34,861 nucleotides of DNA, taken from the NCBI GenBank assembly GCA_021399345.1, contig JAAFKI010000040.1, positions 1 through 34,861 of the forward strand, written 5' to 3'. The notes beneath the pieces were generated by a model that did no database searches, was not told the DNA's origin, and was given only the letters and a program-made list of their open reading frames with translations. The DNA comes from Candidatus Heimdallarchaeota archaeon (lineage in GTDB: Archaea > Asgardarchaeota > Heimdallarchaeia > Heimdallarchaeales > Heimdallarchaeaceae). This document shows, piece by piece, positions 24,823-29,181 of this stretch; position 1 is the stretch's first letter; the number at the start of each line of letters is the position of its first letter. The translations under genes were made by a program, and so were the position numbers.

Positions 24823-25353
24823 ATGTCAAGCTACAAGTATACATTCAAGATTCTTTTACTAGGAGACGGTGCAGTAGGTAAGACTAGTTTAGTCCAGAGA
24901 TTCATTCACAATAAATTTCAAGCAGGATACCTCATGACAATAGGAATGGAACCCTACAGCCGATTTGAGACAATTAAAGATACTCGAATTTGTTTGCAGC
25001 TTTGGGATATTGCTGGACAAGATAGGTTCGCATCAATGCGTCAAATTTTCTTTAAAGGCAGTTTAGGAGCATTAGTAACTTATGATATTACTCGTCGCCA
25101 GTCCTTTGAAAATCTGGATACTTGGATTCGAGAAGCCAGAACAGAGAGTCCTCGAATTATGCTCATGCTTGTAGGTAACAAAAATGATCTTGAAGATTTG
25201 CGAGATGTTTCTACAGAAGAAGGTGAGAAGTACGCAAAAGAATCTGGATGTATCGGCTTTATTGAAACTTCTGCTAAAAACGGAATCAATGTTGAAAATG
25301 CATTTATTGTAATGGGAGAGGAAATTCTTCAGGGAATTGAAACTAGAGATTAA
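24823..25353 (+). CDS. Rab-like small GTPase (Ras superfamily)
   Basis: G1 GDGAVGKTS, G2 TIG, G3 WDIAGQ, G4 GNKND, G5 ETSAK; RabF-like LQLW, RF and YDIT. Confidence 0.95.
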   Translation: MSSYKYTFKILLLGDGAVGKTSLVQRFIHNKFQAGYLMTIGMEPYSRFETIKDTRICLQLWDIAGQDRFASMRQIFFKGSLGALVTYDITRRQSFENLDTWIREARTESPRIMLMLVGNKNDLEDLRDVSTEEGEKYAKESGCIGFIETSAKNGINVENAFIVMGEEILQGIETRD

Positions 25354-25914: not shown

Positions 25915-25923
25915 AAAAAAAAA
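25915..25923 (-). terminator. Oligo-T terminator after tRNA-His
   Basis: T9 run two nucleotides downstream of CCA on the minus strand. Confidence 0.6.
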
Positions 25924-25925
25924 GC

Positions 25926-26000
25926 TGGTGCCCCGAGCAAGATTCGAACCTGCCTCTATGGAGCCACAATCCACAATACTAGCCGCTATACTATCGGGGC
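25926..26000 (-). tRNA. tRNA-His (GUG), intronless, CCA encoded
   Basis: Reverse complement folds as a cloverleaf: acceptor GCCCCGA/TCGGGGC, D stem GTAT/GTAT, anticodon arm GTGGA-TTGTGGC-TCCAT, T arm GCAGG-TTCGAAT-CTTGC, then A-CCA. Confidence 0.96.
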
Positions 26001-26025
26001 AATTAATGTCTATTTTACATCTTTG

Positions 26026-26035
26026 TTTTTAAAAA
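26026..26035 (-). promoter_or_regulatory. TATA box of tRNA-His
   Basis: TTTTTAAAAA 26-35 nt upstream of the mature 5' end. Confidence 0.55.
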
Positions 26036-26098: not shown

Positions 26099-26578
26099 AT
26101 GAGCTCTGGGAAAATAATTGTTCAATTGCACAATTTCAGTAGCGTTAATTACTGTAGAGAATTCGTCAAAATAGCTTTAGGATTAGGGGCGCGAGATATA
26201 GTCCTTTCTAAGGCATCAGGAACTGCTGCAACAAGTGGAGTTCCAGTTGCACAAAAGCTAGTTCATTCAAAAAAAGCTAATCTTCTATATTTACAAGATA
26301 TTGATGATTCTATTGAACTGTGCCAACCTGATGAGGTTTATCTCTTTATCAAACAACCTTTTTCAAAAGAAATCTTTAATCCAGAAAAAATAGCTGATTC
26401 TTATAATAAAGGAAAAAATATTTTACTAATATTTGGTGGATCTGAACCTGGTTTAACTAAACAAGAGCTAGATAAAGGCATTTCAGTTTACTTTGATAAA
26501 GGAAATGAACTGGGTTGCTTAGGAGAAATAACACTCGCATTGTATCAATTAAGAAAAGAAATAGAAATAGATGAATAG
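26099..26578 (+). CDS. DUF2122/COG4080-like protein (predicted SPOUT-class RNA methyltransferase fold)
   Basis: LHNFSS, SKASGTAATSGVP, IFGGSEPGLTKQEL, LGCLGEITLALY. Confidence 0.75.
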   Translation: MSSGKIIVQLHNFSSVNYCREFVKIALGLGARDIVLSKASGTAATSGVPVAQKLVHSKKANLLYLQDIDDSIELCQPDEVYLFIKQPFSKEIFNPEKIADSYNKGKNILLIFGGSEPGLTKQELDKGISVYFDKGNELGCLGEITLALYQLRKEIEIDE

Positions 26579-28635: not shown

Positions 28636-29181
28636 CTATACTATATCTTCTTCAGCAACCATAAGTCTGGTTAAGTTGATGAAAGCTTTTTCAGCGTTTG
28701 TTCCATCTTTTGCAGAGGAATACAGATATTCAGAGTTACTAAAATCCTTAGCCAATTGTTTCATGTCATCTTCAGTGACTTTTTGATCTTTTAAATCACA
28801 TTTATTTGCTAGAAAAATGATAGGTTTGTCGCCCACTTCCTTTTTAAAAGATTCAACCCAAGAGGGGAGATTTTTGAAAGATTCATAATTAGAAGCATCA
28901 CAAATAGCCAAAGCACCTTTGCTTCCAAAGAAATATTTACTTCTTATTTGTCTGAAAACTTCTTGACCGCCGATATCCCAGATAGCTAGTGTCACATTGT
29001 AAGAAAGATAATCAACTACTTTTTTCATTATTGTTGTGCCTAAAGTAATCTTGTAAGATGGATCAAACATATTGGATACAAATCTTCTAACCAAGGAGGT
29101 TTTTCCCACTCTTGCGTCACCAATAAGAACTATTTTGTTAGTCAGGTATGTTTTCTTTGACACGTAGCTCACTACTCCCAA
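28636..29181 (-). CDS. Rab-like small GTPase (Ras superfamily); start may be a downstream GTG
   Basis: GDARVGKTS, TLG, WDIGGQ, ANKCD, SSAK. Confidence 0.94.
   Translation of the reverse strand: MGVVSYVSKKTYLTNKIVLIGDARVGKTSLVRRFVSNMFDPSYKITLGTTIMKKVVDYLSYNVTLAIWDIGGQEVFRQIRSKYFFGSKGALAICDASNYESFKNLPSWVESFKKEVGDKPIIFLANKCDLKDQKVTEDDMKQLAKDFSNSEYLYSSAKDGTNAEKAFINLTRLMVAEEDIV

Follow-up and report, generated by a model that had tools for sequence, protein, structure and literature searches.

The G-1 residue of tRNA-His is among the most universal of tRNA identity marks, and the only exceptions known to us come from a single clade of Alphaproteobacteria and from a few protists. The stretch of DNA analyzed here (34,861 nucleotides, referred to as the window; contig C163 of a Candidatus Heimdallarchaeota archaeon genome of 3.27 Mb in 199 contigs, 88.6% complete) carries a tRNA-His gene in which neither G-1 nor C73 is encoded, which raises the question of how histidine tRNA is recognized in this lineage: is a G added after transcription, or is the residue dispensed with altogether? 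Reviews describe archaeal tRNA-His as carrying C73 (PMC3245924, PMC9976931), and a 2026 paper mentions in passing that archaeal tRNA-His has both C73 and A73 (PMC13433404). In the full-text literature we found no paper linking tRNA-His identity with Asgard archaea.

The tRNA-His(GUG) gene occupies positions 25926..26000 on the minus strand and was identified by both ARAGORN, as tRNA-His(gtg), and the Rfam model RF00005, which was covered in full (55.3 bits, E 1.9e-9). The predicted product is a cloverleaf with a GUG anticodon, no intron and a G1-C72 pair. Direct reading of the minus strand gave a 7 bp acceptor stem (GCCCCGA/TCGGGGC) with G1 at 26000, the discriminator A73 at 25929, a genome-encoded 3' CCA at 25926..25928 and a T at position -1 (26001), so that G-1 is not encoded. 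The stem, A73, the encoded CCA and the T before G1 had all been described in an earlier note made from the letters of this DNA, and the description was confirmed by the sequence, ARAGORN and Rfam. Canonical prokaryotic tRNA-His is defined by G-1 together with C73; the window gene has T-1 and A73 at these positions. CCA is encoded by 39 of the 43 tRNAs of the genome, and the D-loop of the window tRNA-His is 8 nt long, compared with 7 nt in many relatives.

Nine consecutive T residues (25915..25923, minus strand), two bases past the CCA, are a likely archaeal transcription stop. Upstream of the gene TTTTTAAAAA (26026..26035, minus strand, -35 to -26) resembles a TATA box and would imply a leader just a few bases long; a similar TATA-like box is located at -32 to -24 in two further versions of the locus found on contigs C11 and C94. 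The tRNA-His gene is 100% identical across four congeneric genomes while its flanks diverge, which argues for a real, conserved gene and against a chance match.

Only one GTG tRNA was found in the genome by ARAGORN, run with and without intron search, and a scan of unpredicted T-arm/acceptor 3' halves revealed no hidden or intron-rich C73 tRNA-His. Indeed, no CCA-encoding tRNA of this genome uses C73, and the C73 tRNA-His elsewhere in the genome that the earlier note had named as a possible refutation was thus not found by either ARAGORN or the T-arm scan. A BLAST search with the window gene did return two more partial copies, at the extreme ends of contigs C11 and C94, which are 87% identical to the window gene, break off near position 67 and have G at -1. 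Both contigs share the gene order of the window (Ras-like GTPase, variable cassette, DUF2122 gene, tRNA-His), their proteins are approximately 79% identical to the window counterparts, and over the tRNA body the two copies match a relative (G006) exactly, in which -1 is T and 73 is A. The shared gene order and the level of protein identity indicate that these are the orthologous locus of co-binned congeneric populations and not paralogs; we therefore rejected them as a canonical second gene in spite of the G at -1, and the search for other tRNA-His copies left the window gene as the only one.

The two loci (G000 C11:1-6370, L025, and C94:1-2060, L021) are additional versions of the 25.9-29.2 kb region of the window, and the two contigs begin and end at matching homologous points. 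Between the conserved flanks the cassette differs: the window has an SBP_bac_5 protein there, C11 three repeat proteins and C94 another gene. On either side of the tRNA locus lies a Ras-family small GTPase gene (24823-25353, plus strand, and 28636-29181, minus strand, of the window), with Pfam Ras matches of E 1e-52 and 2e-38 and many paralogues in the genome at 32-38% identity. The DUF2122 gene (PF09895, 159 aa) is located at 26099-26578 on the plus strand, divergent from and upstream of the tRNA-His gene, and this pairing was present in every genus member seen and absent in other genera. Its product contains a GGSEPGLT motif which we take to resemble a SPOUT methyltransferase motif, and a homologue with 43% identity is found approximately 1.3 kb from hisS in genome G025.

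To follow A73, C73 and position -1 across lineages, two covariance models, R1 and R2, were built and the bases beside their top hits were read in the class of the window genome (83 genomes), in other families of the Asgard phylum and in one DPANN phylum. A73 was present in all 45 examined genomes of five families, f1 (the family of the window genome), f3, f4 and f7 of the same Heimdall class and f12 of a different Asgard class, and CCA is encoded in most of the A73 genes of f1, f3, f4 and f7. Within f1, the closed Ca. Heimdallarchaeum aukensis and Ca. Heimdallarchaeum endolithica chromosomes contain A73 tRNA-His only. Heimdallarchaeota AB_125 is a member of the same genus as the window genome. 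The A73 gene of f12 is intron-rich and lies directly beside hisS; intron-rich tRNA-His genes of related lineages were missed by ARAGORN.

Position -1 itself carries no conserved base in the tRNA-His genes of these lineages and is without constraint, being T in 28, A in 12, G in 1 and C in 1 of the 42 A73 genes that could be parsed. T was found at -1 in 17 of 29 distinct upstream contexts, compared with 30% T at positions -2 to -6. Within the window genome, T precedes 21 of all 43 tRNAs, and since T-1 is equally common there in tRNAs of every kind we attribute it to a general leader bias and not to a His-specific U-1:A73 pair, which was rejected as an identity element for this reason.

Elsewhere the canonical form prevails. 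Encoded G-1 with C73 was found within the same class in f5 (22 genomes, 3-5.9 Mb) and f6, and outside it in f8, f9, f11, f15, f17, f18, f20 (read in five genomes), f22, f24, f30 and f31. Families f5, f7 and f12 may correspond to the Hod-, Gerd- and Hermod-groups. Among 41 genomes of the DPANN sample G was at -1 in all of the approximately 24 tRNA-His genes seen, and position 73 was C in all but one, a second copy with U. Two Asgard genomes, G307 (f28) and G309 (f29), have C73 with T at -1. Family f21 has A73 in two genera (G279:C1:2957394-2957493, L251; G280:C388:6237-6306, L267), with neither a G at -1 nor an encoded CCA, and seems to represent a second occurrence of A73 that arose independently or by transfer. 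The single f2 genome (G025) has a tRNA-His with U73 and CCA, A at -1 and two introns (L142:1501-1632, minus strand), a further departure from G-1:C73 within the same order. The tabulation of -1 and 73 that the earlier note had called for thus gives A73 as a lineage-wide trait of five families and G-1:C73 in most others, with A73 patchy across Asgard lineages as a whole.

If G-1 were added after transcription a Thg1 or Thg1-like protein (TLP) would be expected, and the earlier note had proposed a search for one. No match to Thg1 (PF04446) or Thg1C (PF14413) was obtained in the window genome, tblastn with three Asgard TLP queries gave no credible match (best E about 1), and PF04446 was absent from all 83 genomes of the class, closed genomes included. 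The same PF04446 search detected TLPs in 16 of the 400 genomes of the phylum (E 1e-21 to 1e-34), which indicates that the search works. These 16 include G307 and G309, the only two genomes seen with C73 lacking an encoded G-1, and the combination of TLP, C73 and T-1 in both fits templated G-1 addition. In G307 the TLP gene (C1:153867-154244) is 7.5 kb from the tRNA-His gene (C1:161785-161854, L252). No TLP was found in the f21 genomes, nor in any genome that combines A73 with the long histidyl-tRNA synthetase described below.

The histidyl-tRNA synthetase (HisRS) follows the tRNA. The window genome has one hisS, on contig C41 and so on a separate contig from the tRNA-His gene (C163), which encodes a protein of 498 aa (P0001) with tRNA-synt_His and anticodon-binding domains in Pfam. 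Full-length relatives of this type are approximately 500 aa long with 37-97% identity, and this long HisRS was found in 30/30 genomes of f1, 10/12 of f3, 3/3 of f4, 11/12 of f7 and 17/19 of f12, and in no other family among the 400 genomes. It forms a single clade in the tree (support 100/99), with f12 nested inside the clade and weakly sister to f7. Every family with the long HisRS has A73, and every family read as G-1:C73 has other HisRS types. The tRNA-His gene is 0.3-9 kb from hisS in f7, f12 and f2; neighbor loci in f7 and f12 include G082:C325:20867-22710, G075:C33:17538-23902 and L229-L232. In f21 the HisRS, read in G280-G282, is of a different type (434-479 aa from the first Met, open frames 480-486 aa), and hisS of G279 was not found. 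The f2 HisRS (G025) is of a third type, 460 aa with a long insertion before motif 1, and is encoded 6 kb from the tRNA-His gene.

Among solved structures the best relatives of P0001 are the HisRS of Thermoplasma acidophilum (232 bits) and then those of trypanosomes (3hri/3hrk, 188/187 bits), with human HisRS at 117 bits. The motif-2 loop, which the earlier note had suggested inspecting, is FRDETPQRGRVKE (ETPQRGR) in P0001. The motif-2 Gln, which in the E. coli enzyme reads C73, is retained, and the Ala-Met-Thr-like insert found at this place in eukaryotes (PMC10100707) is not present. P0001 also has Val in place of the Tyr of GRYRE and Lys at the site of E. coli R123. In Thermus thermophilus HisRS a Gly-Gly forms the G-1 pocket, with Asp-Asp in Caulobacter (PMC4357726). 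The corresponding residues are Glu-Lys in P0001 and mostly acidic/polar pairs in the long clade, while trypanosome HisRS keeps GG and the HisRS of canonical G-1:C73 Asgard lineages varies too, with GD, AD, EG or G[KNQ]. Since canonical Asgard enzymes vary at the same sites, neither the motif-2 loop nor the Gly-Gly site was accepted as a decisive marker of G-1 independence; the Glu-Lys of P0001 agrees with a closed G-1 pocket without settling the matter. In the AlphaFold prediction for P0001 (mean pLDDT 77.9) an all-helical insertion of approximately 150 residues (about 170-325) is modeled with confidence. The pocket and motif-2 loops (47-91 and 114-123) have low confidence values, so that the model gives no answer on the pocket.

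When the lack of an encoded G-1, the ordinary leader, the absence of Thg1/TLP from the searches, the exchange of HisRS together with A73 and the proximity of tRNA-His and hisS in three families are considered together, the simplest account is a tRNA-His without G-1 that is charged by a co-evolved, G-1-independent long HisRS, and we regard this as probable on sequence evidence. RNase P would cut at +1 as for any tRNA, leaving G1 as the mature 5' end, and the sole HisRS of the genome (P0001, C41) would then charge the window tRNA-His. The long HisRS would need neither G-1 nor C73; its recognition of the tRNA presumably depends on the GUG anticodon together with other features of the acceptor. 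We thus infer a mature tRNA without G-1 and a HisRS that is independent of it, the change in histidine tRNA recognition being probably a rewiring and not a shift to the eukaryotic mode. Counting against this reading are the motif-2 Gln, which P0001 retains in spite of the loss of the C73 that this residue reads in E. coli, the 88.6% completeness of the genome and the variability of the Gly-Gly site in canonical Asgard enzymes. Of the two options the earlier note had left for this archaeon, a eukaryote-like non-templated Thg1 lost ground with the negative result in 83 genomes, and a G-1-independent HisRS gained ground as A73 was seen to track the long HisRS.

Three other explanations have to be weighed. 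A G might be added opposite A73 after transcription by an enzyme unrelated to Thg1, or one too divergent to be recognized, with the HisRS still dependent on G-1. In eukaryotes it is A73 that faces the non-templated G-1 (PMC3245924), P0001 retains both the Asp-Arg...Arg flanking the pocket and a basic Lys/Arg at the E. coli R123 site, and homology searches are blind to a G-1-adding enzyme unrelated to Thg1. We nevertheless think this unlikely: the HMM that readily detects TLPs in other Asgard genomes (E 1e-21 to 1e-34) found none in 83 genomes of the class, closed ones among them, addition of G opposite A73 is not an activity of the known archaeal TLPs (PMC3245924), and the whole HisRS has been swapped for another type in precisely the lineages with A73.

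The encoded base at -1 might on the other hand be retained, with RNase P cutting one base upstream as in the bacterial G-1:C73 case, to give an 8 bp stem closed by U-1:A73 in which N-1 serves identity. Aeropyrum HisRS accepts A-1 or C-1 (PMC9976931), in C. elegans an encoded G-1 is retained opposite A73 (PMC4338351), and T at -1 is in excess over the neighboring upstream positions in distinct contexts. The same T is general in the window genome, however, and A, which cannot pair with A73, occupies -1 in 12 of the 42 genes, among them all those seen in f4, which makes this explanation quite improbable. A third possibility, that assembly missed a canonical G-1:C73 tRNA-His and the A73 gene is only a spare or is inactive, is hardly credible. 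The assembly is incomplete and in 199 contigs, tRNAs often go unassembled and ARAGORN misses intron-rich tRNA-His genes in related lineages, but no tRNA-His other than the A73 type occurs in the two closed chromosomes of this family, A73 holds in all 45 genomes even as the flanking sequence changes, and the window genome offers neither a hidden C73 candidate nor any CCA-encoding tRNA with C73.

If the reading of a G-1-less tRNA-His with its own HisRS is correct, whole Asgard lineages, including the cultivable or closed-genome Ca. Heimdallarchaeum group, would have dropped G-1 and C73 and swapped their HisRS. This would be the first archaeal case of a G-1-less tRNA-His and would provide a ready-made orthogonal HisRS/tRNA pair, and histidine identity would have been rewired repeatedly near the archaeal-eukaryotic boundary. 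Some caution is called for in that A73 alone is no eukaryotic signature.

This bears directly on the comparison with known systems. The eukaryotic cytosolic system shares with the window gene A73 and the lack of an encoded G-1 (PMC3245924), but it combines non-templated G-1 addition by Thg1 with a G-1-dependent HisRS, whereas no Thg1 was found here, and the Ala-Met-Thr-like motif-2 insert of eukaryotes (PMC10100707) contrasts with ETPQRGR and its prokaryotic Gln in P0001. The description of this tRNA as having a eukaryote-type identity, which headed the earlier note, is not borne out given the absence of Thg1, the prokaryotic motif-2 Gln and a HisRS that is nearer to the Thermoplasma and trypanosome enzymes than to the human one. 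Its suggestion that the locus bears on the origin of the eukaryotic system fared no better. The HisRS of f5 (L104:1456-2787, minus strand, and relatives) is closer to human HisRS (219 bits) than to Thermoplasma HisRS and has a eukaryote-looking REFxQCDADIIG motif, yet its tRNA-His has an encoded G-1:C73, and A73 is patchy in Asgard archaea. The connection with eukaryotic origins is accordingly weak. A scheme in which eukaryotic A73 was inherited from a Heimdall-type ancestor already without G-1:C73, the Heimdall state (A73, no G-1, anticodon-driven HisRS) being an intermediate and the G-1 added by Thg1 a later overlay, would be a long shot.

Archaeal C73 tRNA-His repaired by a TLP likewise lacks an encoded G-1 (PMC3061083, PMC3245924), but templated repair needs both C73 and a TLP, and the window lineage has neither while G307 and G309 have both. 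Trypanosoma brucei and Acanthamoeba castellanii (PMC4338351, PMC3561963) are similar in having A73, G1-C72, no G-1 and no Thg1, and the trypanosome HisRS is G-1-independent by experiment (PMC4338351). This enzyme is also the second-best solved relative of P0001, a likeness taken from the ranking of scores. Both organisms are eukaryotes, however, and unlike P0001 their HisRS keep Gly-Gly and are without the motif-2 Gln.

The alphaproteobacterial system, as described for Caulobacter crescentus (PMC3064791, and Wang et al. 2007 as cited there), resembles the present one in having A73, no encoded G-1 and no Thg1. The two differ in detail. Caulobacter HisRS prefers a G1-U72 wobble and its tRNA type has an enlarged 9 nt D-loop with U20a, compared with the archaeal G1-C72 and a D-loop of 8 nt in the window gene; its pocket dipeptide is Asp-Asp (PMC4357726) where P0001 has Glu-Lys, both being charged replacements. 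In Caulobacter, as here, a lineage-specific HisRS co-varies with the tRNA, and the Asgard counterpart, known here from its sequence, belongs to another, enlarged clade of approximately 500 aa with a helical insertion of approximately 150 residues.
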